Both the position numbers and the translations under genes were made by a program. Shown piece by piece: positions 24,732-54,553 of a stretch of 64,000 bases of DNA; the stretch's first letter is position 1; each line of letters begins with the position of its first letter. The stretch spans positions 29,175-93,174 of the forward strand of contig DASYRZ010000158.1 in assembly GCA_036003865.1 (NCBI GenBank). Direction: 5' to 3'. The notes below the pieces were generated by a model. It was not told the origin of the DNA and made no database searches. It saw nothing but the letters and a program-made list of their open reading frames with translations. This DNA is from Gemmatimonadales bacterium (lineage in GTDB: Bacteria > Gemmatimonadota > Gemmatimonadetes > Gemmatimonadales > GWC2-71-9).

Positions 24732-24741
24732 GGAGCGCGCA

Positions 24742-25104
24742 GTGAGCCACACGGTTCTCGTCTGTGACGACGCCATCTTCATGCGCACGATGATCACGGA
24801 CATCCTGGCGCAGGCCGGATTCGAGGTCGTCGGCGAGGCGGAAACCGGCACCCAGGCGGTCGAGAAATACCGGCAGCTCAAGCCGGATCTGGTCACGATG
24901 GATATCGTGATGCCCGACATGGGCGGCATCGACGCCGTCCGGGAGATCGTGAAGCACGATCCCGACGCCAAGATCCTGATGTGCAGTGCGATGGGGCAGC
25001 AGGCGTTGGTGGTCGAAGCGATCCAGGCCGGCGCCAAGGACTTCGTCGTCAAACCGTTCCAGCCCTCCCGCGTCCTCGAAGCCGTGCAGCGCGTTCTGGG
25101 CTAG
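24742..25104 (+). CDS. cheY: chemotaxis response regulator CheY
   Basis: 120 aa single REC domain: DD pair, phospho-acceptor in LVTMDIVMPDMGG, conserved K in VVKPF. Confidence 0.92.
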   Translation: MSHTVLVCDDAIFMRTMITDILAQAGFEVVGEAETGTQAVEKYRQLKPDLVTMDIVMPDMGGIDAVREIVKHDPDAKILMCSAMGQQALVVEAIQAGAKDFVVKPFQPSRVLEAVQRVLG

Positions 25105-25106
25105 CC

Positions 25107-27053
25107 ATGGACCTGTCGCAGTACGCCGAGCTGTTCCTGGCCGAGAGCCGCGAGCACTTGAGCGCCTGCAACCAGTTATTGCTCGAGTGGGAGCGGAATC
25201 CGGCGTCGACCGAGCCGGTCGGTGGTCTGTTCCGCGCGGTCCACACGGTGAAGGGGATGGCGGCGACGATGGGCTATGGCCGCGTTGCCGATCTCTCGCA
25301 CCGGATGGAGAATCTCCTCGACAATCTGCGCCGCAGCGCGCGCGCGCCCGCCGAAGACCTGATTCAGCTGCTGTTTCGCGCCACCGATGCGCTCGAGAAG
25401 GCGGTCGAGCTCGCCGTCGCCGGGCGCGAGCGGGAAGCCGATCTCGCGATCCTCGCCGACATCGATCGCGCCGCGCAACAAACGAAACCTGCCGCGCAAC
25501 CAAGCGCGCTCGCGCGCGTGTTGGGTGAGTCCACTGAGTCCTCAGACGCGGACTCCTCGCCGAGCCTACCTGCTGCGTCTGCGGCGCCTGCCGCGTCTCG
25601 CGGATCCACCCGCCTCATCGGCGTCACCATCCGTGCCGAGGCACCGTTAAAGGGTGGTCGTGCGATGCTCGTCATTCGGAAGGTGCAGACCCTGGGCACC
25701 GTCCACCGCATACAGCCGCCTCCCGCCGCGTTCGAGTCGGACGACTTCGATGGCCGGTTCGCGTTCGAGCTCGAGACGGCGGCGGCCCGGGCCGACATCG
25801 AGGCCGCCGTCCGCGCCGTGGGAGACGTCGAGCGGGTGACGTTCGGCGGCGGGATCGATGAGGGGCAGGTCAGTCCGGCCGAAAGCGTGGCCGGCGGCGG
25901 GCGCAGCCGGCACATTCGCGTGGACCTGCGGCGGCTCGACACGCTGATGGATCTGATCGGCGAGCTCGTCACCGAGCGCGGCCGCCTGAATGAGCTGGCC
26001 GCGCGCTGGGTAGGGCGCGATCCCGAGATCGACGAGGTGGCGATTCACATCTCGCGGCTGTCGGCCGATCTCCAGAACGAGATCATTCAGGCGCGCATGA
26101 CGCCCGTGTGGCAGGTGTTCGATCGCTTTCCGCGGCTCGTGCGCGATGTCGCGCGGCAGCTCGGCAAGCAGATCTCGTTTCGCGTCGAAGGAAAAGAGAT
26201 CGAGCTCGATCGGGAAATCCTCGACGCGCTCGGCGATCCGCTGATGCACCTGCTCCGCAACGCCGTGGATCACGGCATCGAGCCGCCCGCCGAGCGCAAG
26301 CGCCACAAGAAGAACCCCGAAGGCGAAATCGTCCTGGCCGCGGTGCGCGAGCGCTCCAGCGTGGCGATCAGTATTTCGGACGACGGGCGCGGCATCGATC
26401 GCGGCGAGATCCTCGCGAAGGCGAAGAAAGAAGGCATCGTCGGGCCGCACGTCGAATCGCTCTCCGACGACCAGCTGCTCCGCGTGCTGGCGCGGCCGGG
26501 CTTCTCGACGGCGGAGTCGGTGACGAGCGTCTCGGGCCGCGGCGTGGGGATCGACGTCGCCATGACGCGCATTCGCGCGCTGGGCGGGTCGATCGAGATC
26601 CGCACCGAGCGCGGCAAGGGCACCGCCTTCGTGCTGCGGCTGCCGGTGACGCTGGCGATCGTGCGCGCCCTGATCGCCGCGGTGGGTCACGAGCGCTATG
26701 CGCTGCCCCTCACGTACGTCGCCGAGACGGTCGAATTTGGGACGACGCCGCTGACGACGATGGAAGGTCGCGACGCGATCGTGCTGCGTGATCGCGTGGT
26801 GCCGCTGGTTGATCTCCGGAAGCTTCTGGGAACGAATGGCGGCGCTCCCTCGCCGCCCCCTCGCCGCCCTGTGATCGTGCTCGAGATGGGCGAGCGGCGC
26901 GCCGGGATTGTCGTGGACGGCATGTTGAGCCAACAGGAAATCGTCGTGAAGGGATTCGACGCGCCGCAGGGGACGCTGCCGGTCTTCAGCGGCGCCACGA
27001 TCATGGGTGATGGCGTGCCCGCGTTGATCCTCGATGCGGCCGGTCTGGTCTAG
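25107..27053 (+). CDS. cheA: chemotaxis histidine kinase CheA
   Basis: Hpt HTVKGMAATMG, dimerisation region, N-box HLLRNAVDHGIE, G1 DDGRGID, G2 GRGVGID, C-terminal CheW-like P5 domain. Confidence 0.95.
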   Translation: MDLSQYAELFLAESREHLSACNQLLLEWERNPASTEPVGGLFRAVHTVKGMAATMGYGRVADLSHRMENLLDNLRRSARAPAEDLIQLLFRATDALEKAVELAVAGREREADLAILADIDRAAQQTKPAAQPSALARVLGESTESSDADSSPSLPAASAAPAASRGSTRLIGVTIRAEAPLKGGRAMLVIRKVQTLGTVHRIQPPPAAFESDDFDGRFAFELETAAARADIEAAVRAVGDVERVTFGGGIDEGQVSPAESVAGGGRSRHIRVDLRRLDTLMDLIGELVTERGRLNELAARWVGRDPEIDEVAIHISRLSADLQNEIIQARMTPVWQVFDRFPRLVRDVARQLGKQISFRVEGKEIELDREILDALGDPLMHLLRNAVDHGIEPPAERKRHKKNPEGEIVLAAVRERSSVAISISDDGRGIDRGEILAKAKKEGIVGPHVESLSDDQLLRVLARPGFSTAESVTSVSGRGVGIDVAMTRIRALGGSIEIRTERGKGTAFVLRLPVTLAIVRALIAAVGHERYALPLTYVAETVEFGTTPLTTMEGRDAIVLRDRVVPLVDLRKLLGTNGGAPSPPPRRPVIVLEMGERRAGIVVDGMLSQQEIVVKGFDAPQGTLPVFSGATIMGDGVPALILDAAGLV

Positions 27054-27057
27054 GTTT

Positions 27058-27132
27058 TCACACGCTAAAGCGTGCGCTCGGCCAGCGCTGCCCTTAAGGG
27101 CAATGTCTGCCGAGCACACCCTTCAGGGTGTG
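27058..27132 (+). repeat. structured intergenic element, copy A (three hairpins)
   Basis: CACGC-TAAA-GCGTG; GCTCGGC..TGCCCTTAAGGGCA..GCCGAGC; ACACCC-TTCA-GGGTGT. A paralogous copy lies at 39790-39866. Confidence 0.85.
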
Positions 27133-27147
27133 AACTAAGGGAGCGAC

Positions 27148-27765
27148 ATGGAAGACGTTCGCGATCTAAAAGCGCTGCAGCTCGACGCCCTCAAAGAGGT
27201 GGCGAACATTGGGGCCGGCCACGCGGCCACGGCGCTCTCGCAGCTCACGCACCGCCGCATCATGATCTCCGTGCCCGAGATCAACATCGCGCGACTGGAA
27301 GACGTGCCCGGGCTGATCGGCGATCCGCAGGAGGTCGTCGCCGCGGTGCTCATGCACATGCTCGGCGACCTGACCGGCCGGACGCTGTTGATCTTCCCGG
27401 AGCCCGTGGGCCGGCAGCTGTGCGACATGCTGCTCAAGCGGCCGCTCGGCACGACCAAAGCGTTCGAGACGATCGAGCAGTCGTGCCTCAAGGAAGCCGG
27501 CAACATTCTGTCGGGCGCCTACATGAACGCGCTGTCGGAGTTCATGGGGATGCTGCTGTTGCCGTCCGTGCCCAGCCTGGTGGTGGATCTCTCGGCCGCA
27601 GTCCTCACGACGACCTACCTGAACTTCGGGCACGATCGCGACTTCGTGTTTTGCGTCGAGACGGAGTTCAACATCGACGCTCAAGACGGGTTGCGCGGCC
27701 ACTTCCTGCTCCTGCCCGACCTGGCGTCGCTCAAGGCCATCTTCGACGCCATTCGGCTGACTTGA
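27148..27765 (+). CDS. cheC: CheC-family CheY-P phosphatase
   Basis: Two E-x2-N active-site repeats (LKEVANIGAGHAA and LKEAGNILSGAY). Confidence 0.85.
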   Translation: MEDVRDLKALQLDALKEVANIGAGHAATALSQLTHRRIMISVPEINIARLEDVPGLIGDPQEVVAAVLMHMLGDLTGRTLLIFPEPVGRQLCDMLLKRPLGTTKAFETIEQSCLKEAGNILSGAYMNALSEFMGMLLLPSVPSLVVDLSAAVLTTTYLNFGHDRDFVFCVETEFNIDAQDGLRGHFLLLPDLASLKAIFDAIRLT

Positions 27766-30461
27766 CGGTCTCAGAGCGTGACGTCGCCGTCCTGAGGTCC
27801 TTTGCCCGCCGGATCGACCCATCCGATGCGGGCGCGCACAACAATCTCGGTGTTCTCTACTATCAAAAGGGTCTCGTCCCCGAGGCCATCGAGCAGTTCA
27901 CCCGCGCGCTCGAGCTCGACCCGCGCATGCAGGTCGCGCAGCGCAATCTCGAGATCGCCTACCACAACACGGGCTATTACGACCGCCGCGTGGCCGAGCT
28001 GCAGGAGCGGCTGCGGCAGGCGCCCGATGAGCGGGACGCGCGTTGGGAGCTGGGCCGCACCTACGCGATCCTCGGCGCCTTCGACGAGGCGGTCGCCGAA
28101 TTCGAGGAGCTGCTCGGCCACAAGCCGGACGACGTCGCGGCGATCATCCAGCTGGGGCTCGCCGAGAAGGCGCGCGGCCGCCTCGAAGTCGCCACCGAAT
28201 GGTTCCTGCGTGCCGCCGAAGCCGAGCCCGACTCCTCGGTCGTCCACTTCTATCTGGGTGAGGTTTACTACAATCGCGGGCTGAACGAGCCGGCGCTGGG
28301 CGCCCTGGAGCGCTCGGTCGCGCTCAATCCGGACAACGCCAACGCGCACTACCTGATGGCCTTCGTGCTGGGCGACATGGGTCGCCATCAGGACGCGCGC
28401 GCGGCCTCCAAGCGCGCGATTCAGCTCAACCCGCCGCTCGCGCGCGCGCAGACGAATCTGTCGCTGGAACGCTACCGCGCCGAGCGGCAGTCGGCCGAGC
28501 ACCGGCTGCGCGCGCAGCCCGCGCCCGAGGTCGCCGAAGGCAGCGAGCTGGCGCACCACAACCTCGGCCTCGCGTTCCGGCAAAAGGGGTACTACGCGGA
28601 GGCGCTGCGCGAATATCGCCTCGCGCTCGAGCGCGGCGAGGACCGCCGGCTCGTGCGCCAGGCGATGGCGGAGGTCTATCTGCTCAAGCGCGACTTCACC
28701 GACGCGCTCGAGCTGTACGAGTCCCTGATCCACGAGATCCCCGATTCGCCCAAACTCTGGAACGAGCGGGGTGTCGTGCTCCATCAGGCGGGCCGGACGG
28801 CGGATGCCCTGGCCTCGTATCGCCAGGCCACCGACGTGGATCCGCGCTACGCGCTCGCCTGGAACAACGTCGGCGTGGTGCTCGCGCACCAAAGCGACGC
28901 GGAAGACGCGATCGAGGGGTTCCGCAAAGCGCTGCAGCTGTCGCCGGAATTCGTCGGCGCTCGCCTGAACCTGGCGCTGCTGTTGACGCATCTGCGGCGC
29001 TTCCAGCTCGCGCTCGAAGCCTACCGCCAGGTGCTCGCCGACCAGCCGGCCTCCGCGGCCGCGTGGAACGGCGTCGGCCTGGTGCTGGTCGAGCTGAAGC
29101 GCTTTCCCGACGCCCGCAACGCCTTCGTGCGCGCGGTCGAGGCCGATCCACAGAACGCCGGCGCGCACTACAACCTGAGCTTCACGCTCTCGAACCTCGG
29201 CGACTACGACGGCGCCCTGCGGGCGACCAAACGCGCGCTGGAGCTCGATCCCTACTACGTCTCCCAGAAGTTCGCGCTGGCGATCGACCTGCAGTACGAG
29301 ACGGTGGCCATCGGCGTCGTGCCCGAGATTTCCGCCGACGTCAGCGCCGAGAACCTCGGCGGCGAGTTTGCGTTCGACCAGCGCCTGCTCGACAACATCT
29401 TCCAGGAGCTCGAGCCGGCGGCCACCGCGCCGCAGCCCGCGCCCGCCGGGCTCGCCAGGAAGGCGGACGATCCGCTCGGGCTCGCGCGCGACTACGTGAG
29501 CAAGGGCATGATGGACCTCGCCGTCGCGGAGGCGATGCGCGCCGTGCAGCGCGGGGCGGACCGCGGCCAGGCGGCGACGCTGGTGGGTGAGATCTACGCG
29601 CGGCGCGGCCTGCATGGCGAGGCGCTCGAGCGCTATCGCGAGGCGCGCACCCTCGACGGTACGAATGCCGCGGCCGCGCTGGGCGAGGTCAAGAGCCTGC
29701 TGGCGCTGCACCGCGCGGCGGAGGCACTGCCGCTCACCGAAGAGCTGGTTGGCAAGGCGCCCGAAGATGTCGAAGTGCTGGTCGCGGCGGCGAAGGCGCG
29801 CGCGGCGACGGGCGACGCCGCCGGCGCGCTCACCGCCTTGCGGCGGGCGCAGACGCGGGCCCCCGACCGCGCCGATTTGCACAAGCTCCAGGGCGATATC
29901 GCCCTCAAGGTCGGCGACCGGCAGGGCGCGCGGACGGCGTACCGCGCGGCGCTCGACTTGGATGAGGGGTTCGTGCAGGTCTGGCTCGACCTCGGGCGGC
30001 TGCACGAGCAGGACGAGGAATGGATGGACGCGCAGCGAGCCTATGAAGCGGCGCTCGACGCGCTGCCGACGTTCCATGAAGCGGCGCTCGCGCTCGCGGA
30101 TCTGCTGCGGCGCAGCGGCAGCCTGCGCCGCGCGGTGGTGCGGCTCGCCGAAATGCTGGAGCAGGATCCGTACGACATGGACGCGCTGCTGCTGCTCGGC
30201 CGCGCCCTGCTCGACGACAAGCGCAATACCGAAGCGCTGGAGGCGTTCCGGCGCGCGCTGAAATTCGATCCCGAGCACACCGCCGCGCTGTTCTACCTGG
30301 GCGCGACGCTCGCGCGGCTGCAGCGCTACGCCGAGGCCGTGGCTGCCTGGGACCGCGTGACGCGGATCGATCCCGGCGGACCGTTCGCGCAACGCGCGCG
30401 CATGCACGCGCGCACCGCGGTCGACTTGCAGCACATTTTCTCCACCCCGGACGCGGCCTGA
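27762..30461 (+). CDS. large TPR-repeat protein (about 899 aa)
   Basis: TTG start overlapping the cheC stop (TTGA). Continuous TPR consensus (..AHNNLGVLYYQKG...A..F..AL.L.P). Confidence 0.8.
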   Translation: MTVSERDVAVLRSFARRIDPSDAGAHNNLGVLYYQKGLVPEAIEQFTRALELDPRMQVAQRNLEIAYHNTGYYDRRVAELQERLRQAPDERDARWELGRTYAILGAFDEAVAEFEELLGHKPDDVAAIIQLGLAEKARGRLEVATEWFLRAAEAEPDSSVVHFYLGEVYYNRGLNEPALGALERSVALNPDNANAHYLMAFVLGDMGRHQDARAASKRAIQLNPPLARAQTNLSLERYRAERQSAEHRLRAQPAPEVAEGSELAHHNLGLAFRQKGYYAEALREYRLALERGEDRRLVRQAMAEVYLLKRDFTDALELYESLIHEIPDSPKLWNERGVVLHQAGRTADALASYRQATDVDPRYALAWNNVGVVLAHQSDAEDAIEGFRKALQLSPEFVGARLNLALLLTHLRRFQLALEAYRQVLADQPASAAAWNGVGLVLVELKRFPDARNAFVRAVEADPQNAGAHYNLSFTLSNLGDYDGALRATKRALELDPYYVSQKFALAIDLQYETVAIGVVPEISADVSAENLGGEFAFDQRLLDNIFQELEPAATAPQPAPAGLARKADDPLGLARDYVSKGMMDLAVAEAMRAVQRGADRGQAATLVGEIYARRGLHGEALERYREARTLDGTNAAAALGEVKSLLALHRAAEALPLTEELVGKAPEDVEVLVAAAKARAATGDAAGALTALRRAQTRAPDRADLHKLQGDIALKVGDRQGARTAYRAALDLDEGFVQVWLDLGRLHEQDEEWMDAQRAYEAALDALPTFHEAALALADLLRRSGSLRRAVVRLAEMLEQDPYDMDALLLLGRALLDDKRNTEALEAFRRALKFDPEHTAALFYLGATLARLQRYAEAVAAWDRVTRIDPGGPFAQRARMHARTAVDLQHIFSTPDAA

Positions 30462-30464
30462 CGC

Positions 30465-31601
30465 ATGGCGATCGAAGGACCGCTTCGCGAGCTCGGCATC
30501 CACGACGTCTTCCAGCTGCTCGACCTGAGCCGGAAGACGGGCGCGCTGCGCGTCACCTCGGACCTGCGGCACAACGAAGGGAAGATCTACTTCGACAACG
30601 GCGTCGTGGTGTCGGCGGAAATCCGCAGCAATCCGCATCCGCTCGGCGCCCTGCTGCTCCGCACCGGCAAGATCGCCGAGGCCGACCTCGAGCGCGCGCG
30701 GGACATGCAGCAGCGCCAGGGCGACAAGCGCCGCCTCGGGGAGATCCTCGTGGCGCTCGGCGTCATCACGCAGCGCGAGGTCGAGCGCCAAATTCACTTC
30801 CAGATCGAAGAGGTCGTCTTCGAGGTCATGAGCTGGAACGAGGGCTACTTCTCGTTTGTGGAAGAAGCCGAGAGCAAGGTCCCCACCGAGGTGACGGTGC
30901 GCATTCCGGTGGAGGCACTGCTGATGGAAGGCGCGCGGCGCATCGACGAGTGGTCGCGGATCGAGAACCGCATTCCGCACGTCGGCGTCGTGCCGTCGCT
31001 CGCGCCCCCTCCCGAAGGCGGCGGCGGTGAGCTGGACCTGTTGCCGCCGGAGTGGGAAGTGCTCGCGCTCATCGATGGCGAGCGCTCGGTCCGCGGGCTC
31101 GCGACGGAGCTGGGGCGCTCCGATTTCGAAGTCGCCAAGACGCTGTTCGGCCTCGAGAGCGCCGGCGTGATCGTGCTGGTCGATCCGGGAACGGCGCGGC
31201 GCGGGAGGCCGAGTGCCGCCTCCGACCTGGCGGAGCTCGTCGCGAAGGCCGAGCGCGCGCTCGTCGCCAAGGATCTCGATGCCGCGCGGGCGGCGGCGGA
31301 GCAGGCCAGCAGCATGCAGCCGCACGACGGGACGATTCATATCCTGCTCGGCCGCATTCAGCTGGCGCAGGGTCACGCCTCCGCGGCCGCCGAGGAGCTG
31401 CGGCGCGCACTCCGCCTCGATCCGCTCCTCGCCGCGGCGCATCGCCAGCTCGGATTTGCACTGGTCGCGATGGGGCGGTTTGGTGAGGCCGTGCAGAGCT
31501 GGGATCAGTGGGAGCGCCTGGCCCGGACCCCAGAGGAAGAAGCGCAGAAGGCCGACGTCCAGCGCGCCCGCGAAGCCGCGCGAGTGTTCACGCATGGCTG
31601 A
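30465..31601 (+). CDS. PATAN/DUF4388 domain protein with MshEN-like helical insert and C-terminal TPRs
   Basis: N-terminus GPLRELGIHDVFQLLDLSRKTGALRV; tandem RLGxxLVxxGxI...Q motifs; TPRs at the C-terminus. Confidence 0.75.
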   Translation: MAIEGPLRELGIHDVFQLLDLSRKTGALRVTSDLRHNEGKIYFDNGVVVSAEIRSNPHPLGALLLRTGKIAEADLERARDMQQRQGDKRRLGEILVALGVITQREVERQIHFQIEEVVFEVMSWNEGYFSFVEEAESKVPTEVTVRIPVEALLMEGARRIDEWSRIENRIPHVGVVPSLAPPPEGGGGELDLLPPEWEVLALIDGERSVRGLATELGRSDFEVAKTLFGLESAGVIVLVDPGTARRGRPSAASDLAELVAKAERALVAKDLDAARAAAEQASSMQPHDGTIHILLGRIQLAQGHASAAAEELRRALRLDPLLAAAHRQLGFALVAMGRFGEAVQSWDQWERLARTPEEEAQKADVQRAREAARVFTHG

Positions 31602-32439
31602 CGACATCCGCGCGCTGTCCGCGCAGCTCGCCCAGGATCCGCAGAGCCTCGTGTTCCTGCGGCTCGGCGAAGCGCTGCGGCGCAAAGGACAGCTCGACGC
31701 CGCGCTGCGTGTCGCCATGAACGGACTGGAGCGGCATCCGCACCTCGCCGATGCGCACGATTTGTACGCGCGTATCCTCACTGATAAGCACGATTACGAG
31801 CATGCGTTCGACGAGTGGGACATGGCGGTGCGGATCGCACCACACCACACGGGGGCGCTGAAGGGGCTCGCCTTCCTCTATTTCAAGGTGGGAGACATCG
31901 AGCAGGCCGAGGCCCATCTCGCGGCTGCGAAGCGCGTCGAGCCCGACGACCCCACCATCGAGCAAGCATTCGAGATGATGCGCGGCGGCCGCAGACCGTC
32001 GTTGCCCGAACCGACTCCTGCCCCCGAGCCGGCAGCGACCGCCGCCGCATCTACCGCCGCCGTGTCGAGCAGTGGCTTTGATGAGGCACGCGTGTTCGCC
32101 GGCCTCGAGGGCGCCAACGAAGGCCTGCTGCTGATCGACGGCGCAGGACGGGTGCTGGGCGGAGCGTTACGAGATCGCTCCGGTACGGATGTCACGGACA
32201 GCGTCGCAGCGTACCTTGCCGGTGTGTCTCAGGAAGCGGCGCGTACCGCTAAGCTGTTGGGCCTCGGCGCCTGGAACGGGCTGTCGGCGGAAGGGCAGCA
32301 CGGCAACGTGCATCTCGCCCATCCGACGCCAGAAGCCTTGTTGCTGGTCGTGCGCGAACGGGGCATGCCGCTCGGCCGCCTCGCGATCCTCGCGCAGCGC
32401 GCCACGATCATGGCGCAGCGCTGGCTGGAACGGCAATGA
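31594..32439 (+). CDS. TPR + Roadblock/LC7-like fusion protein
   Basis: Start at ATG 31594. N-terminal TPRs, Pro/Ala linker, C-terminal ~110 aa resembling a Roadblock domain (GLLLIDGAGRVLGG..). Confidence 0.6.
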   Translation: MADDIRALSAQLAQDPQSLVFLRLGEALRRKGQLDAALRVAMNGLERHPHLADAHDLYARILTDKHDYEHAFDEWDMAVRIAPHHTGALKGLAFLYFKVGDIEQAEAHLAAAKRVEPDDPTIEQAFEMMRGGRRPSLPEPTPAPEPAATAAASTAAVSSSGFDEARVFAGLEGANEGLLLIDGAGRVLGGALRDRSGTDVTDSVAAYLAGVSQEAARTAKLLGLGAWNGLSAEGQHGNVHLAHPTPEALLLVVRERGMPLGRLAILAQRATIMAQRWLERQ

Positions 32440-32783
32440 GCAAGGCGCTCGATATGATCACACGGGTGCGCGGCGTCCGCGGGGCGATGCTCGTTTCCGC
32501 GGAAGACGGGCTCGTGGTCGCCGAGCAGCTGATGGAGGGGATCAAGGGCGGCGCCGTCGCGGCGCTTGCCGCGAGCCTTGCCGGTCGCCTGCGGCGCGCG
32601 ATGGAGGCCGCGGGCACCGGAGCCAGCGTCTTTTGGCATCTTCAGGCGGAGCAGGGCGCGCTGCTCGTCGTCCCGGGAGGTGACCCCGTCGGCAGTATCC
32701 TGGTCGTCGCGGTGGCAGAGCCGGACGTGAACATCGGCCTCGTGCGGCTGGAGCTGCTGCGCGCCGCGGGGGCCGTCGTATGA
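32436..32783 (+). CDS. Roadblock/LC7 domain protein (MglC-like size)
   Basis: 115 aa; VRGVRGAMLVSAEDGLVVAE...GGAVAALAASL pattern; ATGA coupling. Confidence 0.75.
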   Translation: MSKALDMITRVRGVRGAMLVSAEDGLVVAEQLMEGIKGGAVAALAASLAGRLRRAMEAAGTGASVFWHLQAEQGALLVVPGGDPVGSILVVAVAEPDVNIGLVRLELLRAAGAVV

Positions 32784-33256
32784 GTCCGCAGACACGCGCG
32801 GTCGAAAACTGGACGCTGCAGCCGTTGACGGACTTCGTGCGCGAAGCGTCGGCCCGCCTGGTGCTGGTGCTCACGCCGGCCGGCCAGGTCCTCGCGCAAT
32901 CGGGATTCTCGCGCGCGGTCGATGTGATGTCGGCCGCGGCCCTCGCGGCGGCGATTGTCGCGTCCACGGCGGAGCTCGCGCGCCAAATGCGGCAACCGCC
33001 GTTCGGCGCGCTCAGCCATCAGGGACCCAAGACCGGTTTCTTCCTCGCGACGTTCATGACCGAACGCGGGACGCTCGCCGTCCTCGCCGTGTACGACCTC
33101 GATGTTTCATCGCTCGGCTTGGTGCAGTTATTCTATGAGCAACTTGCGGCGGAGTTGAAGGCGGCGAGCCCCAAAGGGGGGGTCCAGAAGCAGGTGCTGG
33201 CCGCGGATTTCGAGCGCGAGCTGACGGACAGCCTCAACACGCTGTTTGGGAGATAG
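32780..33256 (+). CDS. mglB: MglB-like GTPase-activating protein (Roadblock/LC7)
   Basis: Aligns by eye with M. xanthus MglB: ARLVLVLTPAGQVLAQSG vs AKVVFLVDKNGQLISSAG; SSLGLVQLFYEQLAAEL vs TSLGLVRLRIKKASDEL; C-terminal ..LNTLFGR vs ..DNLFSE. Lies directly upstream of mglA. Confidence 0.8.
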   Translation: MSPQTRAVENWTLQPLTDFVREASARLVLVLTPAGQVLAQSGFSRAVDVMSAAALAAAIVASTAELARQMRQPPFGALSHQGPKTGFFLATFMTERGTLAVLAVYDLDVSSLGLVQLFYEQLAAELKAASPKGGVQKQVLAADFERELTDSLNTLFGR

Positions 33257-33259
33257 GCC

Positions 33260-33862
33260 GTGTCCTTGGTCAACTTCACGACCCGCGAGATCACGTGCAA
33301 AATCGTCTACTACGGACCGGGACGGTCCGGAAAGACGACCAATCTCCATTACATCTATGGGCGGGTGCCGGAGACGCGCCGCGGGCGCATGGTCTCGTTG
33401 GCCACGCAGACCGACCGCACCTTGTTCTTCGACTTCCTGCCGATCGACCTTGGACAGATTTCCGGGTTCTCGACGCGCTTCCAGCTCTACACCGTCCCCG
33501 GGCAGGTCTACTACAACGCCACGCGGCGCCTCGTGCTCCAAGGCGCTGATGGCGTCGTCTTCGTCGGCGACAGCCAGGCGCGGCAGCTCGATGAGAACAT
33601 CGAAAGCCTACAGAACCTCCAGAGCAATCTGCTCGAGCATGGCGTCGATGTGCGCACCATGCCCCTGGTGATGCAATACAACAAGCAGGACTTGCCGCGC
33701 GAGCTGATTCTCACGACGGCCGACCTCGATGACGCACTCAACTTTCGCAGCGTTCCGAGCTTTGGGGCGGACGCGCTCCATGGCAGAGGGGTGTTCGAGA
33801 CGCTGAAGGCGGTCTCCGAGCTTGTTCTGAAGAAGCTCGCGGCGGGAAGCCCCGCAGCATGA
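33260..33862 (+). CDS. mglA: MglA-family Ras-like GTPase
   Basis: P-loop [19 protein letters not shown], MglA-specific TVPGQ (in place of DxxGQ), NKQDL. High similarity to M. xanthus MglA along the whole length. Confidence 0.92.
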
Positions 33863-35808
33863 CCAGCTCCCTCAATCCCCGTTTCACGTTCGAGACCTTC
33901 GTGGTGGGCGCCGCGAACCGTCTGGCCGTCACGGCCGGCCGCACCGTCGCGGAGAATCCGGGTTCGGCCTACAACCCGCTCTTCATTTATAGTGGCTCCG
34001 GACTGGGAAAGACCCACCTGCTGATGGCCATCGGCCACGCCGCCAAGGCCATCGCGGCGCAGCTCAACATCGAGTACCTCACGCTGGACGAGTACGTCGA
34101 GTCGTTCCATGCCGCGATTGCGGCGGGGCAGGGCGACGCGTTCCGCCGCCGCTTCCAGAACGTGGCTGTCCTGCTGGTGGACGACGTCCAGTTCCTCACG
34201 AATCGCAAAGAGATGCAGGCCGAGCTGCTGCGCCTCACCGAAGCGCTGCAGCAATCGGGGCATCAGATCGTGCTCGCGAGCGATCGACCGCCGGCGGAAA
34301 TCGCGGATTTGGACGAACGGCTCATCTCGCGGTTCTCGGGTGGGCTCGTGGTGGACATGGGCATCCCCGACTACGAAACCCGGGTCGCGATTCTGCGGCG
34401 CAAGGCCGAGGAGCGCGGCTCGTCGTTCCAGCCGGGCGTGCTCGAGACGGTCGCGAAGGTGGAGTACCCGAACGTGCGCGAGCTGATGGGTGCGCTCAAT
34501 CGCTTGATCGCGTTTCAGGCGGTCAACGACATGCCGATCAACGCCGAAGCGGCCAGCAAAGTCCTCGGGATCCCGACCAGGCCATCGACCGCCGCTGCAT
34601 CGACCGCCGCCTCATCGACCGCCGCCTCATCAGATGAGTTCTCGCAGTTCTTGACCGACGTCACGACGACCGTGGGCAAAGCCGTCGAGGCGTGGCGCGC
34701 GCGCGTGACCGAGGCGATCATGCGCTGGGAAGGTGAAGGCTACCGCACCGGGAGGCTCGAGAAGCTGCTCGATCAGGAGAGTCCCGCCGCGGTGGACGAG
34801 GTGATCGCCGCCTACGTGCAGGATGTCGAGCGGCTCAAGGCGCTGGAGGCGGAAGTCGCGGTGCTGGATCCGCAGGCCGCCGGCGGGAAGGTGTTCCGCG
34901 ATCCCGACCAGATGGAGGCGGCCGAAGCCGCCGCGGCGAAGGTGCGCGACGGCGCCGCGCCGCCGCCCGCGCCATCGGGGGCGTTTCCGCTCGAGAGCTA
35001 CCTCGCCGGTCCGTCCAATGAGGTGGCGCTGAACGCCGCGCGCGATGTGCTGGCCAAGCCCGGCAAGAAATACAATCCGCTCGTGATCGTGGGACGCAGC
35101 GGGCTCGGCAAGACGCATCTGCTGAATGCCATCGGCCTCGAGCTCGCAAAAAAGAAGAACGCGGTCGTCGCCTGTCTCTCGACCCAACAGTTCGTGGACG
35201 AGCTGATCGCGGCCATCGACGGCAATCGGGTCGATTGGTGGCGCGCCCGCTACCGCCGCGCGACGGCGCTGCTCCTGGACGACATCCACCTGCTGGCCGG
35301 CAAGGAACGCACGCAGGAAGAGCTGTTCAATCTGTTCAATCAGCTCGTCGACGCCGACCGCCAGCTTATCTTCACGGCGCCCGCGCATCCCAACACGCTG
35401 GAAGGACTCGAGGAACGGATCATCTCGCGGCTCGAGGGCGGGTTGGTTGCGCAGATCGCCGAGCCGGACAAGGAGCTCCGCCGCAGCGTGCTCGAGCGGC
35501 TGCTCACGCAGCAGGGGATACCGGTCGAGCCGGCGCTGCTCGATTATCTGGCGGACCGGCCCATCGACTCGATCCGCAATCTGAACGGCATCGTGCAGCG
35601 CGTGGTGGAGGCGGCGGCGGCGCAGGATGCGTCCGTGAGCGCCGGCCTGGCGCGCGAAGTCTTGGAAGGCGCGCCCCCGCCCCGGCGCACGGTGGGGCTG
35701 CGCACCAGCGGGATCGTGGTGTCGAGTGCCGGGGGCGTGCGGAGCCGGGAGAAGATGGTCTGGGATTGGCCCGCCGCCGCCGATCGTGTCATCGAGGATT
35801 TGCGCTAA
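33859..35808 (+). CDS. protein with two tandem DnaA-type AAA+ modules and no DnaA domain IV
   Basis: Module 1: [50 protein letters not shown]. Module 2: [54 protein letters not shown] overlap with mglA. Confidence 0.88.
34584..34628 (+). repeat. 3x 15-mer CATCGACCGCCGC(C/T)(T/G) tandem repeat (encodes [16 protein letters not shown] linker)
   Basis: Read directly from the sequence; lies in the linker after the first DnaA-like module. Confidence 0.85.
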
Positions 35809-37424
35809 TGGCGATCAAGGGCTCGCTCAAGGAAGCATCGCTCCCCGACGTGCTGCAGCTGCTGGCACTGGGGCAGAAGACCGGCTGCCTGTCGATCGCC
35901 GACCGCTCCAACTTCGGCTACATCTACTTCGACAGGGGCCGCATCTGCTACGCGTCCATCGTCAACCGCCGCGACCGCCTCGGCGACATTCTCGTCAAGC
36001 ACGAGAAGATCACCCAGGATCAGCTCGACGCCGCGATACACCGCCAATCGAAAGAGCGCACCAAGAAGCTGGGTGAGATTCTCGTCATCCAGAACGTGCT
36101 GACGCAGCAAGAGCTCGAGCGGTACATGCGCATGCAGATCGAGGAGTCAGTCTACTACCTGTTCACGTGGACGCAGGGGACGTTCAATTTCGAGGCCGAC
36201 GTCCGGCCGGAGCAGCAGGACTTCCTCGTCTCGATCAACCCGGAGTCGCTGCTGCTCGAAGGCGCGCGCCGGGTGGACGAGTGGGGACTGATCGAGAAGA
36301 AGATCCCGTCGTTCGATCTGATCTTTCTCGTGGACCGCGACCGCCTCGAGATCAGCGACGCCAAGCTGACGGAGATTCAGGACCGGCTCCTGCCCCTGCT
36401 CGACGGATCGCGCGACGTGAACGGGGTCATCGAGGACTCGGGGTTAGGCGAGTTCGAGGTCGGGAAAGCGCTCTACGGCCTGGTGACCGCCGGGTTCCTG
36501 CATCGGGCGGGCCGTACCGCCAGCGCCGAAGACCTGAAGATGACCGACGCCCGGGTGGAGGAGCATCGCAATCTGGGCATCGCCTTCTACAAGACGGGCA
36601 TGCTGGACGAAGCGGCACGCGAGTTCCGCCGCGTCGCCGAGCTGCGCGCGACCGACGGCAATGCCCATTTCTTCATCGGCCTGGTCGCGCTCAAACAGGC
36701 GCGCTGGCGCGAGGCCATGGAGGCGCTGCGGCTCGCCGCCGAAAAGGGCGGCTCGCGGCCGGCCGTGCTCCACAATCTCGGCCTTGCCTACGAGCAGCTC
36801 GGCCGGCTCGAGGACGCGGATGCCGCGTATTCCGAGGCGGCGACGCGCGCGCGCACCGACCCGCGCGTGTACGTGGGGTGGGGCATCGTCGCGCTGAAGC
36901 AGGGCGATCACGCGAGCGCCGCCGGCCGGCTCGACCGCGCCAAGGAGCTGTTCGCCGCCAAGGTGCCGCCCATCTGGTACTGGGCGCGCGCGCTCGCCGC
37001 GGCGGCCGCCGGCGATTTCGACACCGCCGAACAGGTGGCCACGCAGGCGGTCGAGGCGCATCCGCACAGCGGCGTGCTGCGCAACAATCTGGCCGTACTG
37101 CACGAGCTGGCCGGGGCGCTGCCGCAAGCCGAGGAGCTGGCCCGCGCGGCGCTGCACGACGAGCCGTCGCTGCCGCAGCTCTCCAAGAACCTCGGCGATC
37201 TCGCCTACCGCGGTTCGCGCTACGACGAGGCGTGGGCGCTCTATCAGCGGGCGATCGAGCTGGCCCCCGAGCTGGGCGACGACGTCTACTTCAAGCTCGG
37301 CAACATCGCGTACAAGCGAAACGACCGCCAACAGGCGAGCGACTTGTGGCGTCGCGCGCTCGAGCTGAATCCCAAACACGAGCTCGTCAAGGCGAATCTG
37401 GACACGTTGAGCAGTTTGTCGTGA
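35808..37424 (+). CDS. PATAN/DUF4388 domain protein with MshEN-like insert and long TPR region
   Basis: Start at ATG 35808 (TAATG). GSLKEASLPDVLQLLALGQKTGCLSI; RLGDILVKHEKITQDQLDAAIHRQ and KLGEILVIQNVLTQQELERYMRMQ; at least 8 TPRs. Confidence 0.8.
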   Translation: MAIKGSLKEASLPDVLQLLALGQKTGCLSIADRSNFGYIYFDRGRICYASIVNRRDRLGDILVKHEKITQDQLDAAIHRQSKERTKKLGEILVIQNVLTQQELERYMRMQIEESVYYLFTWTQGTFNFEADVRPEQQDFLVSINPESLLLEGARRVDEWGLIEKKIPSFDLIFLVDRDRLEISDAKLTEIQDRLLPLLDGSRDVNGVIEDSGLGEFEVGKALYGLVTAGFLHRAGRTASAEDLKMTDARVEEHRNLGIAFYKTGMLDEAAREFRRVAELRATDGNAHFFIGLVALKQARWREAMEALRLAAEKGGSRPAVLHNLGLAYEQLGRLEDADAAYSEAATRARTDPRVYVGWGIVALKQGDHASAAGRLDRAKELFAAKVPPIWYWARALAAAAAGDFDTAEQVATQAVEAHPHSGVLRNNLAVLHELAGALPQAEELARAALHDEPSLPQLSKNLGDLAYRGSRYDEAWALYQRAIELAPELGDDVYFKLGNIAYKRNDRQQASDLWRRALELNPKHELVKANLDTLSSLS

Positions 37425-38218
37425 CCAGGGGGGGGACTCCTCAGGAGCGGGCGTTCGAAGCGCTGACAGAAAAGATCTCTCGCGAACGGGGAGTGAGCTG
37501 CGGGTCGTACAAGGGGCGATGCCTGAAACGCCGCATCGCGGTGCGCATGCGCGCCCGCGGCGTCCATACCTACGAAGACTACGCCAAAATTCTCGATCTC
37601 GACGCGCACGAGTACCAGGAGCTGCTCGACGCGCTCACGATCAACGTCACCAAGTTCTTCCGTAACGCCGAAACGTGGAATGCGCTGCGGCCCTATCTGG
37701 AAGCGCTCGCCCGCTCGCGCGCCAGGCTCCGCGTCTGGTCGGCGGGCTGCGCCTCGGGTGAGGAGCCGTACACGATCGCCGTGCTGCTCGCCGAAGCGCG
37801 CGCGCCAGGCACGATCGATGCGACCGACATCGACCGTCTCAGCCTGGAGCGCACGCGGCAGGCGACCTACCCGGACGCGGCATTCACCGAGATGCCGGAC
37901 CATCTCAAGCGGCGCTACTTCCAGGACGGGCAGCCGCTGCCCCAGGTGCGCGAGCTCGTGCACGTGCTCCAGCACGATTTGACGCGCGAGCGGCCGCCGC
38001 ATCCGCCGTACGATCTGATCGTCTGCCGGAACGTCGTGATTTACTTCGAGCGCGCGGCCCAGGAGCGGCTGTTTCAGGTGTTCGTCGACGCGCTCGTGCC
38101 GGGCGGCGTGCTGCTCCTCGGCAAGGTCGAGACGCTGTTCGGCCCGGCGCGCGAGCGCCTCACCCTCGCCGACCCCCGCGAGCGCATCTATACCAAGCCG
38201 AACGGGGAGCGGTCGTGA
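37421..38218 (+). CDS. cheR: chemotaxis protein methyltransferase CheR
   Basis: GTG start in a GTGA overlap. TKFFRN motif and SAM site VWSAGCASGEEPYTIA. Confidence 0.9.
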   Translation: MTRGGTPQERAFEALTEKISRERGVSCGSYKGRCLKRRIAVRMRARGVHTYEDYAKILDLDAHEYQELLDALTINVTKFFRNAETWNALRPYLEALARSRARLRVWSAGCASGEEPYTIAVLLAEARAPGTIDATDIDRLSLERTRQATYPDAAFTEMPDHLKRRYFQDGQPLPQVRELVHVLQHDLTRERPPHPPYDLIVCRNVVIYFERAAQERLFQVFVDALVPGGVLLLGKVETLFGPARERLTLADPRERIYTKPNGERS

Positions 38219-38697
38219 AGGAAGTCATCGTCAAGGTCGCTGACTGGGCGGCCGACCGTGGCGACGGCGTGCTGGTCACGCTGGGACTCGGCTCCTGCGT
38301 GGCGATCATGCTGCATGACCCCGAGACGCGCGCCGGCGCCATGGCCCACGTCCTCCTGCCCTCCACCAGCCTGGCACGCGACATCACCAACAAAGCCAAG
38401 TTCCCCGAAACCGCCGTCCCGCTGTTGATCGAGCGGCTGAAGGCGCTCGGCGCCGACCCGCGGCGCCTCGTCGCCAAACTGGCCGGCGGCGCCAGCATGT
38501 TCAGCCAGCTCGTCACGCCGGGCACCATTCAGATGGGCGAGCGCAACATCATGGCCTCGCGTAACGCGCTGCGGGCCGCCGCGATTCCGATCATCCGCGA
38601 GTCGGTCGGCGGCGAGCGCGGGCGCAGCGTGCGCTTTCACCTGAAAGACGGCCGCGTGGAGATCCGGTCGGTCGGAGCCGATGCCGCGGTCATCTGA
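38215..38697 (+). CDS. cheD: chemoreceptor glutamine deamidase CheD
   Basis: [12 protein letters not shown]...AMAHVLLP motif set; 160 aa. Confidence 0.9.
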
Positions 38698-39787
38698 CAC
38701 CGTCCGTCCGACGGTCGTGGTTGCGGACGACAGCGCACTCATGCGGCGCGTGCTGTCCGACGTCCTGGGTGGGGGGGATGCCGATACGGGCGAATTCCGC
38801 GTCGTCGCCACCGCGCGCGACGGGCTGGACGCGATTCGGAAGGTGCATCAGCACAAGCCCGACGTCGTGACGCTCGATCTCGAGATGCCGCAGCTCGATG
38901 GCCTCGGCGCCATCGGCTACATCATGTCGGAGTCGCCGCGGCCGATCGTCGTGGTCAGCGCGCACGCGGGACCGGGCACGCAGGGCGCGATTCGCGCGCT
39001 CGAGCTCGGCGCGGTCGAGATCGTCGCCAAACCGCCCCCCGAGGTCTTCGGTCATCCGCGCGCCGCGCTCGAAGCGCTCGCGCCGCAGCTCATCGCGGCC
39101 GTGCGCCGCGCGCTCGCCGCCGATGTCTCGCACGTCAAAGTGCTGGCGCGGCCACCGGCACCGGTGGTGCATCCGCCGGAGCTCGCGTTGCGCGGCCGCG
39201 CGGTGCTCGCCGTGGGCGTCGCCGCGTCGACCGGTGGCCCGCGCGCACTCGCCGACGTCATCCCGCGCCTCCCGACCGGCCGCGGCGCCGCGATCCTCAT
39301 CGTGCAGCACATGCCGCCGAAGTTCACGCGGAGTCTCGCGGAGCGGCTCGATTCGATGAGCCGCTTGCGTGTCGTCGAGGCGGCTGAGGGTGCACCAATC
39401 GTCGCGGATACGGCATTCGTGGCCCCCGGCGATTATCATATGCGAGTGCGTCTTGCTCCCGATGGACCGGTCATCGCGCTCGATCAATCCGCCCCCCTGT
39501 GGGGCGTTCGCCCCGCGGCCGATCACCTGTTCCGTTCCATCGCCGAGGTGTACGGCGGCCGTGGTGTGGGGATCGTCCTCACGGGGATGGGCCGCGACGG
39601 GGCCGGCGGGCTGCGCGCGATCCATGATGCCGGCGGGACCGGCCTCGCCCAGGATCGCGAGACCGCGGTGATTCCGGGGATGCCGGTTGCGGCGGTGCAG
39701 GCGGGCGGCGTCGATGCCGTGCTGCCGCTGGGTCAGATCGCCGACCGCGTCGCGGCCGAGCTGATGCGAAAGGGATCGCGGTCGTGA
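38681..39787 (+). CDS. cheB: protein-glutamate methylesterase CheB (REC + esterase)
   Basis: REC domain ([21 protein letters not shown]); catalytic region [10 protein letters not shown] and [10 protein letters not shown]. Confidence 0.93.
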
Positions 39788-39789
39788 TT

Positions 39790-39866
39790 CGACACGCTAA
39801 AGCGTGCGCTCGGCGGGGCATTGTCCTTAAGGACAATGGTGTGCCGAGCCCACCCTTTAGGGTGGG
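39790..39866 (+). repeat. structured intergenic element, copy B (three hairpins)
   Basis: CACGC-TAAA-GCGTG; GCTCGGC..ATTGTCCTTAAGGACAAT..GCCGAGC; CCACCC-TTTA-GGGTGG. Paralog of 27058-27132. Confidence 0.85.
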
Positions 39867-39875
39867 AATGCCGCG

Positions 39876-40298
39876 ATGAAAGGGTATTTGTTGGTCCGTT
39901 CCGAGGGAAAATCGTACGGCCTGCCGGTCGGCCGGGTGCTCGAGGTCGGTGATGCCTCCGAGGTGCTGAGCATTCCGCGCACGCTCCCGGCGATGCGCGG
40001 CCTGACGCCGCTGCGCGGCCGGCTCGTGCCGTTGATTCACCTCGGCGCATTCCTCACGGGCAGCGAAGCGCCGGCCGCGACTCCCGCGAATCAGGTCCGC
40101 ACCGTCGTGCTGGTGGAGCTGGGTGCCGGCGGCCGGCAGGTGGCGTTCGAGGTGGATGACGCCGCCGCGGTGGTCCGGGAGCAACCGCTGCCGGTTCCTC
40201 GCGGCCAGACGTTGCCCTGGGCGGCCGGCGTGGCGGAGCAGGACGGGGGGCTCGTGCCGATCCTCGATCTGGACGCGTTGGGGGACCGGATCGTATGA
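39876..40298 (+). CDS. cheW: CheW coupling protein
   Basis: 140 aa CheW fold (YGLPVGRVLEV...MRGLTPLRGRLVPLIHL). Confidence 0.85.
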   Translation: MKGYLLVRSEGKSYGLPVGRVLEVGDASEVLSIPRTLPAMRGLTPLRGRLVPLIHLGAFLTGSEAPAATPANQVRTVVLVELGAGGRQVAFEVDDAAAVVREQPLPVPRGQTLPWAAGVAEQDGGLVPILDLDALGDRIV

Positions 40299-40762
40299 CG
40301 ATGAGCGGCGGCGGCGACGACGTCCAGCTGGTTACGTTCAAGGTGGCCGGCCAGGACTTCGCGTTCAACATCTTTCAAGTCGAGCGCATCCTGCGCTACG
40401 AAGCGCCGGCGCCGTTGCCGAAGGCGCCGGAGTTTCTCGAAGGGGTGTTGCAGTACCAGGGCACCGCGGTTCCGCTCGTCGATCTCCGCAAACGGCTGGG
40501 CACGGCCGCGCCGCTGCGCGAGGACACGCGCACCGTCATCCTCGAATTCGACGGCGGGAAAATCGGCGTCATCGTCGATGCCGTGACCGAAGTGATGCAG
40601 GTGCCCGCGCAGGCCGTGACCCCACCGCCGGGCATCGTCCGCGGGCTCGCGGCGGAATACATCGCCGGTCTCGTCGTGCAGAATGGCCGCACCATCGTCG
40701 TCTTGAACACGAACAAGCTCCTCAATTCGAAAGAGAAACTGGCTTTGCAGGGAGCGACATGA
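40295..40762 (+). CDS. cheW: CheW coupling protein
   Basis: 155 aa; LVTFKVAGQDFAFNIFQVERIL...GVLQYQGTAVPLVDLR; ATGA coupling. Confidence 0.88.
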   Translation: MTMSGGGDDVQLVTFKVAGQDFAFNIFQVERILRYEAPAPLPKAPEFLEGVLQYQGTAVPLVDLRKRLGTAAPLREDTRTVILEFDGGKIGVIVDAVTEVMQVPAQAVTPPPGIVRGLAAEYIAGLVVQNGRTIVVLNTNKLLNSKEKLALQGAT

Positions 40763-42720: not shown

Positions 42721-42794
42721 GGGCGAATAGCTCAGCGGTTCAGAGCGCCTGCCTTACACGCAGGATGTCGGGGGTTCGAATCCCTCTTCGCCCA
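42721..42794 (+). tRNA. tRNA-Val (anticodon TAC)
   Basis: 74 nt cloverleaf: acceptor GGGCGAA/TTCGCCC, anticodon arm CCTGC-CTTACAC-GCAGG, T loop TTCGAAT. Confidence 0.85.
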
Positions 42795-44704: not shown

Positions 44705-44778
44705 GGGGCTGTAGCTCAGCTGGTTAGAGTGCCGGTCTGTCACACCGGAGGTCGCGGGTTCGAGCCCCGTCAGCCCCG
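44705..44778 (+). tRNA. tRNA-Asp (anticodon GTC)
   Basis: 74 nt cloverleaf: acceptor GGGGCTG/CAGCCCC, anticodon arm CCGGT-CTGTCAC-ACCGG, T loop TTCGAGC. Confidence 0.88.
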
Positions 44779-54552: not shown

Positions 54553-54553
54553 T

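Follow-up and report, generated by a model that had tools for sequence, protein, structure and literature searches.

The locus described here raises the question of why a gene encoding two copies of the ATPase core of a replication initiator should lie inside an operon of polarity and chemosensory genes. It was found in a stretch of 64,000 nucleotides from a Gemmatimonadales soil bacterium (assembly GCA_036003865.1, contig DASYRZ010000158.1, positions 29,175 to 93,174), hereafter the window, in which the open reading frame (ORF) 33859-35808 of the plus strand starts with ATG and encodes a protein of 649 residues with two DnaA-type AAA+ modules in tandem (the tandem protein). To our knowledge, apart from replication initiators and the regulators of initiators, hardly any DnaA-type ATPases are known. 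The tandem protein belongs to a conserved, uncharacterised family, in which this well-known ATPase module is found in an unexpected functional setting. A double DnaA ATPase core which has no DNA-binding part and is conserved in a signalling operon suggests that the initiator ATPase was reused for a non-replication job, and we lean, with moderate confidence, towards the view that the protein is a non-replicative descendant of DnaA that may act in a polarity-chemosensory module with TPR, PATAN and MglA proteins, as a nucleotide-switched part of an assembly or scaffold.

The Pfam family PF00308 (Bac_DnaA) gave two matches in the tandem protein (E 4.5e-103), the better of which extends over the entire profile (positions 1-162 of 162), and no other known domain was found in the protein by Pfam. 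When the halves were searched separately, residues 1-242 scored 188.8 bits and residues 373-607 scored 159.0 bits. Two DnaA-type AAA+ modules had already been proposed in an earlier note made from the sequence alone, and the motifs it quoted are found where it had placed them in each half: Walker A at residues 45-54 of module 1 and 412-421 of module 2, Walker B at 105-112 and 471-478, box VII, with arginines in both modules, at 152-163 and 518-529, and box VIII at 204-213 and 570-579. The same note had attributed a full motif set to both halves. This is right for module 1, which shows Walker A, Walker B, sensor I, the arginine finger and sensor II, and for the quoted motifs of module 2, but module 2 has lost the sensor-I aspartate (TAPAHP in place of SDRPP) and keeps Walker A, Walker B, the arginine finger and sensor II. 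Sequence identity between the two modules is 35% across 234 residues (E 2e-44). Module 1 is 45% identical to domain III of Bacillus subtilis DnaA and 44% identical to Escherichia coli DnaA, and the values for module 2 are 37 and 36%, respectively; neither module is thus closer to its partner (35%) than to real DnaAs (36-45%).

The scores of the family-specific NCBIfam models place the modules within the DnaA relatives. The DnaA model TIGR00362 gave 279.5 bits for module 1 and 231.6 bits for module 2, covering profile positions 101-336 of 437, which correspond to domain III only. Each module alone stays below the model cut-off of 343.9 bits, and the whole protein reaches 507.5 bits because the scores of the two modules add up. 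The Hda model TIGR03420 gave 88.4 and 101.7 bits for modules 1 and 2, respectively, against a cut-off of 194.8, the IstB model about 50 bits for each module against 200, the DnaC model 24 bits against 357, and the DnaI model 19-47 bits against 228. Furthermore, E. coli Hda is 22% identical to module 2 and showed no match to module 1 at 1e-3. By these scores, both modules are of the DnaA clade proper and not Hda, DnaC or IstB. The DnaC/IstB helicase-loader clade was ruled out by its weak model scores.

The structure predicted with AlphaFold2 has a mean predicted local distance difference test (pLDDT) of 84.8, and in Foldseek it superposes on domain III of B. subtilis DnaA (8bv3) with a template-modelling (TM) score of 0.95 and a root-mean-square deviation (rmsd) of 1.4 Å. 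In each module, the model shows a pair of helices inserted between the second and third strands, where the initiator-specific motif is located (76-88/92-100 in module 1 and 442-454/458-466 in module 2); such a pair is characteristic of the initiator clade. The presence of this pair in both modules would suit a protein that binds single-stranded DNA in an ATP-dependent manner through the initiator-specific helices and tethers the polarity or chemosensory complex to the nucleoid, DNA or RNA, and so would the basic residues R116 of module 1 and K482 and R484 of module 2, read from alignments at positions which we take to be the DNA contacts of DnaA (B. subtilis K222, E. coli R245). These basic positions, however, vary widely over the family, the protein has no domain for binding double-stranded DNA, and the binding of single-stranded DNA by DnaA normally needs prior loading through domain IV; a nucleic-acid anchor of this kind is quite improbable. 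Foldseek also lists chains of the p97 type, and the two AAA+ modules per chain recall the two-ring (type II) AAA+ remodelling machines like p97, NSF and ClpB, which would give the tandem protein a role in unfolding or disassembling a partner complex. The p97-type matches, however, show an rmsd of 21-31 Å and a TM score of 0.17-0.29, and at more than 20 Å and less than 0.3 they reflect the domain count only. In addition, the extra helices of the initiator clade, to which both modules belong, tend to give open spirals instead of flat rings, and the modules are joined by a linker of 135 residues with a domain of its own, unlike the stacked-ring ATPases, so that we give a two-ring machine very little credit.

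In DnaA, domain I serves self-association and helicase binding, and domain IV binds the DnaA boxes. Neither DnaA_N (PF11638) nor Bac_DnaA_C (PF08299) gave a match in the middle region or the tail of the tandem protein, even at E<=10. Alignment of the same regions with hhalign gave a probability of at most 0.3% against a domain IV alignment, for which a split-half control reached 100%, and of at most 0.2% against a domain I alignment. The protein begins directly at domain III, and the DNA upstream of its start encodes MglA. A cryptic domain IV or domain I was rejected at these levels (E<=10 in Pfam, probability <=0.3% in hhalign), in agreement with the earlier note, which had recognised neither domain. 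A regular-expression search found no clamp-binding motif of the Hda type (QL[SD]LF or QLxLxL) in the window protein. The description of the protein as Hda-like is accurate as to the lack of a DNA-binding domain, but membership of Hda was ruled out by the scores below the cut-off, the lack of the clamp motif and the presence of two modules with extra domains instead of a single module. No dnaA and no dnaN are found within the 64-kb window, and the DnaA box TTATCCACA, with up to one mismatch, occurs twice against 2.2 occurrences expected by chance, both about 20 kb from the gene; the absence of dnaN and of DnaA boxes nearby had been pointed out before and is confirmed, the boxes being at chance level.

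The two modules are separated by 135 residues. This region had been described as a linker with an S/T/A repeat and a coiled-coil-like stretch; an S/T/A-rich disordered part is indeed present, with a mean pairwise identity of 0.28 among close orthologues, but the rest is a conserved helical domain and more than a coil. Modelled in isolation, this middle domain (residues 260-366) reached a pLDDT of 84.7 and a predicted TM score (pTM) of 0.70. Neither a profile search against the sequences of the PDB, whose best match was a designed protein (E 0.078), nor a Foldseek search of the isolated model against known folds (best E 6.4) revealed a relative. At the very C-terminus, behind a disordered tether, the protein shows a motif of the type EK-V-W-x-W-P...DR-IEE. 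Conservation across 76 close orthologues was 0.78 for the middle domain, 0.78 for the C-terminal motif and 0.77 for module 2, and the highest value in a deep alignment (33 members) was that of the C-terminal motif (0.43 vs 0.36-0.37 for the ATPase modules), which is recognisable in members with an overall identity as low as 31-33%. Both parts, the middle domain and the motif, are family-specific and are missing from the earlier note.

The protein is not an orphan, as had been supposed: a word-indexed search retrieved 7993 proteins at E<=1e-10, and a scan of one genome per species found relatives in at least 163 species genomes. The top 120 matches are all of 645-656 residues, are 89-100% identical to the query over the full length and carry Gemmatimonadetes or Gemmatimonadales labels wherever they are labelled; taxon labels are those given by the depositors of metagenome bins. 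Among the best 80 of the at least 163 genomes, all belong to Gemmatimonadales or Gemmatimonadota except three records, labelled Myxococcales, Thermoleophilaceae and "uncultured bacterium". An exhaustive search of representatives at 50% identity showed dozens of proteins of about 650 residues which align end to end at 31-57% identity. The labelled members include Longimicrobiales and Gemmatimonadaceae, and the most divergent branch (P0168) is also labelled Gemmatimonadetes. On present evidence, the family looks phylum-wide and restricted to Gemmatimonadota, judging from these sequences and their labels.

The database names of its members are "DnaA/Hda family protein", "AAA family ATPase" and, wrongly, "chromosomal replication initiator protein DnaA". 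Annotation pipelines gave this last name to the window protein, P0002, P0008, P0009 and others, since the two modules together exceed the cut-off of the DnaA model. Such names, together with one chimeric-looking entry (P0269), could suggest a mis-called or decaying gene, either a frameshifted dnaA, an assembly chimera or an anti-phage defence gene. Length and architecture, however, are kept in 75 complete orthologues from many independent assemblies, conservation is strong along the whole length, and the chromosomal synteny is stable and of housekeeping character, which makes an artefact hardly credible. P0269 (357 residues) was considered as a candidate Gemmatimonadota DnaA near module 1 and was not used, as it looks assembly-chimeric: an alphaproteobacterial-type DnaA N-terminus is joined at GLGKTHL to a family-type module 1, which then runs out of frame. 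An anti-phage defence system was also rejected, PADLOC giving only a P-loop match of 33 residues (mad8, 30 bits) and generic TPR matches. A further protein, P0199 (673 residues), shows two DnaA domain III modules in tandem plus a normal DnaA domain IV end; it came from the search of representatives and is a DnaA with a duplicated ATPase in which the DNA-binding domain has been retained.

The tandem gene of the window lies in the order CheW, CheY, CheA, CheC, large TPR, PATAN-TPR, TPR-Roadblock, Roadblock, MglB, MglA, tandem DnaA, PATAN-TPR, CheR, CheD, CheB, CheW, CheW. Its ATG overlaps, as ATGA, the TGA stop codon of the upstream ORF, here identified as MglA, at the junction where the earlier note had proposed translational coupling to mglA, and its own stop codon overlaps the start of the downstream PATAN-TPR gene as TAATG. 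A close set of 80 loci was fetched, of which 78 included the upstream DNA. The 12 query genes were found in the same order in these 80 loci wherever the contig was long enough, and MglA was found in 78 of the 78 with upstream DNA. Six deep branches (L081, L083, L086, L087, L091 and L092) were analysed with tblastn: an orthologue of the large TPR protein is present in 6/6 (E 3e-70 to 0), PATAN in 5/6 and MglA in 3/6, and the branches that lack MglA show none within 10 kb. Of all neighbours, only the large TPR gene, located ahead of the tandem gene, was seen in each of the family branches sampled.

The composition of the cluster differs among the deep branches. Those of Gemmatimonadaceae (L091) and Longimicrobiales (L086) show the full cluster, like the window. 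L081, with 36% identity, shows a Roadblock-MglA-tandem-PATAN core plus CheY and CheC, without CheA, CheR, CheD or CheB, and L083, with 33% identity, shows the order CheW-CheY-CheA-CheC-TPR-PATAN-tandem, without MglA or Roadblock genes. In L087 and L092, of the P0168/P0294 branch, the large TPR gene is directly upstream and neither MglA nor Che genes are present; in L092, a PATAN response regulator and a PAS protein are found nearby. Since MglA is missing from three of the six deep branches and the large TPR protein from none, the conserved partner is the TPR/PATAN module and not MglA itself. The GTPase/Che setting reported in the earlier note is conserved in the close loci, in Gemmatimonadaceae and in Longimicrobiales. 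The linkage to mglA and che genes on which that note had proposed to test its reading holds as linkage to the TPR/PATAN module, and in all close loci, but as regards mglA it extends to only three of the six deep branches. The note had also named three outcomes that would speak against it, namely modules of another AAA+ clade, a cryptic domain IV, or wide occurrence away from mglA and che genes, and none of the three was found in full.

Other genes were observed in the branches without MglA. L083, which has no MglA or MglB, encodes an AAA_22/STAND-like ATPase of 272 residues between CheA and CheW (4035-4853). A conserved protein of about 200 residues is encoded after the tandem gene in L087 (12099-12701) and L092 (8592-9203), where a TPR protein of about 730 residues is also found; the smaller protein is 31% identical between the two loci, shows hydrophobic N- and C-terminal segments and has no Pfam match. 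It was considered as a divergent MglA of the P0168/P0294 branch and rejected, as it shows membrane-like segments, no similarity to GTPases and no relative in the window.

Conservation of the ATP sites was counted in 51 non-redundant two-module representatives. Walker A is kept in 51/51 for module 1 and 45/51 for module 2, Walker B in 49/51 and 39/51, the arginine finger in 33/51 and 40/51, and sensor II in 46/51 and 36/51, respectively, several entries in the count for module 2 being truncated. Both ATP sites and both fingers are kept in 21 of the 51 representatives, the window protein among them. The most constant pairing, as a modest trend, is that of the module 1 ATP site with the module 2 finger, the pattern that would be expected of a second module which regulates the ATP site of the first, or completes it, either in the same or in a neighbouring chain. 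A Longimicrobiales-type subgroup (P0158, encoded at L086:10001-11842, P0196, P0169, P0226, P0228 and P0255) has lost the Walker A of module 2, e.g., FVWGPDDGPRGTL, and retains the module 2 arginine finger and the W-x-W-P motif; some of its members show long low-complexity inserts ahead of the C-terminal motif.

A module tree was generated by the neighbour-joining method and, having no bootstrap support, serves as an indication only. All modules group with DnaA proper, and Hda falls outside on a long branch. In the main Gemmatimonadota group, the module 1 sequences cluster together and so do the module 2 sequences, and these separate clusters indicate one old duplication or fusion, not repeated recent ones. 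Modules of the P0188/P0168/P0163 branch fall among canonical DnaAs and the MshEN fusion proteins described below.

These data also bear on the alternative that the tandem protein is a regulator of replication initiation, which would co-assemble with DnaA, cap it or stimulate its hydrolysis, in an Hda-like or dominant-negative manner, and so couple the polarity or chemosensory state to the cell cycle. DnaA-related regulators exist as a class, with Hda/HdaA and HdaB as known members (PMC7049699, PMC5397184). Both modules are DnaA proper, with the arginine fingers kept in the window protein, module 1 is 44-45% identical to the E. coli and B. subtilis DnaAs, and the position of the cluster immediately ahead of the dcw division genes is conserved. 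However, the protein has no clamp-binding motif and its Hda scores (88 and 102 bits) are far under 194.8, no dnaA, dnaN or cluster of DnaA boxes is found nearby in the window, the genes that recur beside it encode TPR and PATAN signalling proteins and not replication proteins, the arginine fingers are lost in many lineages, and parallel MshEN fusions occur in pilus loci. A role in replication control is unlikely, and is the weaker explanation when set against a scaffold.

A scaffold role could be envisaged in four steps. The module in which the protein would act comprises the large TPR protein and the PATAN-TPR proteins, in most lineages also MglA with Roadblock/MglB proteins, and usually lies within a che operon. 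Both ATPase modules would bind ATP, as the conservation of their motifs suggests. In the ATP state, ATPases of the DnaA clade form head-to-tail assemblies by means of an arginine finger acting in trans. Given this established behaviour of the clade and the retention of the two-helix initiator-specific insertion, ATP may license head-to-tail AAA+ contacts through the arginine fingers, within and/or between chains, switching the protein between free and scaffold-like assembled states, and hydrolysis would reset it. The middle domain and the tethered W-x-W-P...DR-IEE peptide would then recruit partners. TPR domains commonly bind short C-terminal peptides, and this habit, together with the co-occurrence of the genes, makes the TPR proteins the most likely candidates. 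Finally, as the operon structure suggests, the assembly may take input from, or give output to, the MglA and Che proteins controlling polarity or motility.

Several points weigh against this reading. Membership of an operon is guilt by association, and docking of the C-terminal motif on TPR proteins is putative. The position of the cluster directly upstream of dcw leaves room for a cell-cycle role, and the 44-45% identity of module 1 to real DnaAs leaves room for the binding of single-stranded DNA or for co-assembly with DnaA. The loss of arginine fingers and of the module 2 P-loop in many lineages argues that hydrolysis-driven cycling is not universal. Furthermore, the AlphaFold2 model of the whole protein has a pTM of 0.46 and places the two modules relative to each other without confidence, so that the covalent pseudo-dimer put forward in the earlier note, with an interface competent for the arginine finger, is a putative arrangement.

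A more specific form of the scaffold reading can be stated, which we put forward only tentatively. The self-assembly switch of DnaA may have been domesticated as a cytoplasmic, ATP-gated polymer for polarity or signalling, whose C-terminal peptide would dock on the TPR/PATAN proteins and which, controlled by MglA and a Che pathway or controlling them, would serve as a landmark, scaffold or timer for polarity, motility or budding in Gemmatimonadota; its use in the Fermentibacteria-like pilus loci described below would then be convergent or related.

Table 1. Coordinates in the window of the tandem gene, of the parts of its product (aa, amino acids) and of the surrounding cluster.
Feature	Coordinates	Strand	Basis
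Tandem DnaA-type AAA+ gene	33859..35808, stop included	+	ORF; 2 PF00308 matches; full-length orthologues in 80 genome loci
Module 1 (aa 4-237), DnaA domain III AAA+	33868..34569	+	PF00308; TIGR00362; pLDDT ~90 or more
S/T/A-rich low-complexity disordered linker (aa 238-259)	34570..34635	+	pLDDT <50 at 240-260
Family-specific helical middle domain (aa 260-366), signature DEF..FL..V...V...W	34636..34956	+	Predicted helices; conservation
Proline-rich hinge (aa 367-374, PPPAPS)	34957..34980	+	Conserved P-x-P; identity 0.85 in close set
Module 2 (aa 375-606), DnaA domain III AAA+	34981..35676	+	PF00308; TIGR00362
Disordered tether (aa 607-628)	35677..35742	+	pLDDT <50 at 608-631
Conserved C-terminal motif (aa 629-649)	35743..35805	+	K632 and W637 >=90% conserved in deep alignment
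mglA, Ras-like polarity GTPase	33260..33862	+	E 2e-73 to Myxococcus xanthus MglA 5ymx
mglB-like Roadblock/LC7	32780..33256	+	PDB MglB matches, E 7e-8; Robl_LC7; weak NF052242 MglB match
Second Roadblock/LC7 protein	32436..32783	+	PF03259, E 3.6e-9
TPR-Roadblock fusion, start approximate	31618..32439	+	TPR families; Robl_LC7 at aa 168-245; conserved in loci
PATAN (DUF4388)-TPR protein a	30465..31601	+	PF14332, E 4e-33; TPR
Large TPR protein, ~896 aa, start approximate	27771..30461	+	TPR families
PATAN (DUF4388)-TPR protein b	35808..37424	+	PF14332, E 5.3e-39; TPR
Upstream che genes, whole block	24078..27765	+	
CheW	24078-24731	+	Pfam
CheY	24742-25104	+	Named from ORF, translation and position matching Response_reg genes of L086 and L091
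CheA	ORF 24981-27053, true start probably past the cheY stop	+	Pfam
CheC-like	27148-27765	+	Named from ORF, translation and position matching CheC genes of L086 and L091
Downstream CheR, CheD, CheB, CheW, CheW	37421..40762	+	Pfam

The cluster of the window (24078-40762; Table 1) encodes CheR, CheB and CheD, plus three or four CheW proteins. CheR, CheB and CheD act on chemoreceptors, and no chemoreceptor (MCP) gene was seen among the scanned ORFs of the cluster or of the rest of the window. Three consecutive Roadblock/LC7 proteins are encoded ahead of mglA (31618-33256): the TPR-Roadblock fusion, a Roadblock protein of 115 residues and the MglB-like protein, with overlapping stop and start codons between the first and second and between the second and third. 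This row recalls the multi-Roadblock GTPase-activating protein complexes of M. xanthus (PMC9481161).

The cluster has ileS-lspA-rluD on its upstream side and, downstream, the entire set of dcw division genes (mraW to ftsZ). The location of the Che/Mgl/tandem-DnaA genes between ileS-(dksA-like)-lspA-rluD and dcw was observed in the window (19098-24217 and 44817-60432), in L081 and in L091, and is thus retained even in a branch with only 36% identity. The dcw genes are mraW, ftsL, ftsI, murE, murF, mraY, murD, ftsW, murG, murC, ftsA and ftsZ. Three tRNA genes were found in the window, tRNA-Met (2624-2700), tRNA-Val (42721-42794) and tRNA-Asp (44705-44780), the last two between the Che/Mgl and dcw clusters. 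The adjacency to dcw may be conserved synteny only, or it may hint at a link with cell division.

If the scaffold reading is true, the family would clearly exemplify the reuse of an initiator motor in cell signalling or polarity, and the MglA polarity field would gain a new conserved partner outside the myxobacteria. The family would also offer an entry point to the cell biology of Gemmatimonadota, an abundant and poorly studied soil phylum with cultured members. Furthermore, the DnaA label given by annotation pipelines can mislead the prediction of origins and the dnaA-based anchoring of genomes in this phylum.

Compared with DnaA, the tandem protein shows the same AAA+ fold (IIIa plus the lid IIIb), Walker A, Walker B, the box VII arginines and the sensor II of box VIII. 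It differs in that domains I, II and IV are missing, each chain has two ATPase modules, a helical middle domain and the C-terminal motif are added, and the gene lies in a signalling operon rather than next to dnaN or an origin. With Hda/HdaA it shares the status of a DnaA-related AAA+ protein which has no DNA-binding domain and keeps the arginine finger; however, Hda is a single module of about 230 residues with an N-terminal clamp-binding motif, and the tandem protein has neither of these features.

The operon itself resembles the polarity modules built on MglA and MglB. In M. xanthus and Bdellovibrio, MglA, together with MglB and TPR effectors, governs front-rear polarity and activates type IV pili (PMC7519303, PMC7668184, PMC3983030, PMC3441718), and the PATAN regulators of Synechocystis bind the pilus motor or act on it (bioRxiv 10.1101/2021.06.11.447907). 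With the modules of M. xanthus (SgmX) and Bdellovibrio (Bd2492), the operon shares MglA, an MglB-like protein, TPR proteins, PATAN and adjoining che genes, and it resembles the logic of the Frz-MglA system of M. xanthus (PMC3441718, PMC7519303, PMC3983030). A survey of prokaryotic small GTPases noted PATAN neighbours of mglA and did not mention DnaA (Wuichet and Sogaard-Andersen 2014). No ATPase of the DnaA type was encountered for these systems in the retrieved papers on MglA or in full-text searches for MglA and DnaA. Full-text searches likewise gave no such ATPase in mglA, PATAN or che clusters, no tandem DnaA ATPase protein and no account of the present family.

An independent parallel, from another lineage, is a type IV pilus locus (L085, 4309-15923 of GCA_030620115.1) which encodes three fusion proteins of MshEN with DnaA-type AAA+ modules, together with a prepilin peptidase, PilB-, PilT- and PilC-like proteins and PilS/PilR-like regulators. 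In one of the fusions, P0211, of 1990 residues, MshEN is followed by two DnaA modules with about 1280 residues of helical repeats between them; another, of 398 residues, has about 15 relatives, one of them labelled Candidatus Fermentibacteria. These fusions differ from the tandem protein in their N-terminal MshEN, and neither the middle domain nor the W-x-W-P motif is evident in the two giant members P0211 and P0221, but the fusions share with it a DnaA-type AAA+ module without a DNA-binding domain in a motility-related locus. A pilus locus is thus a second motility-related setting in which DnaA modules are found without a DNA-binding domain.

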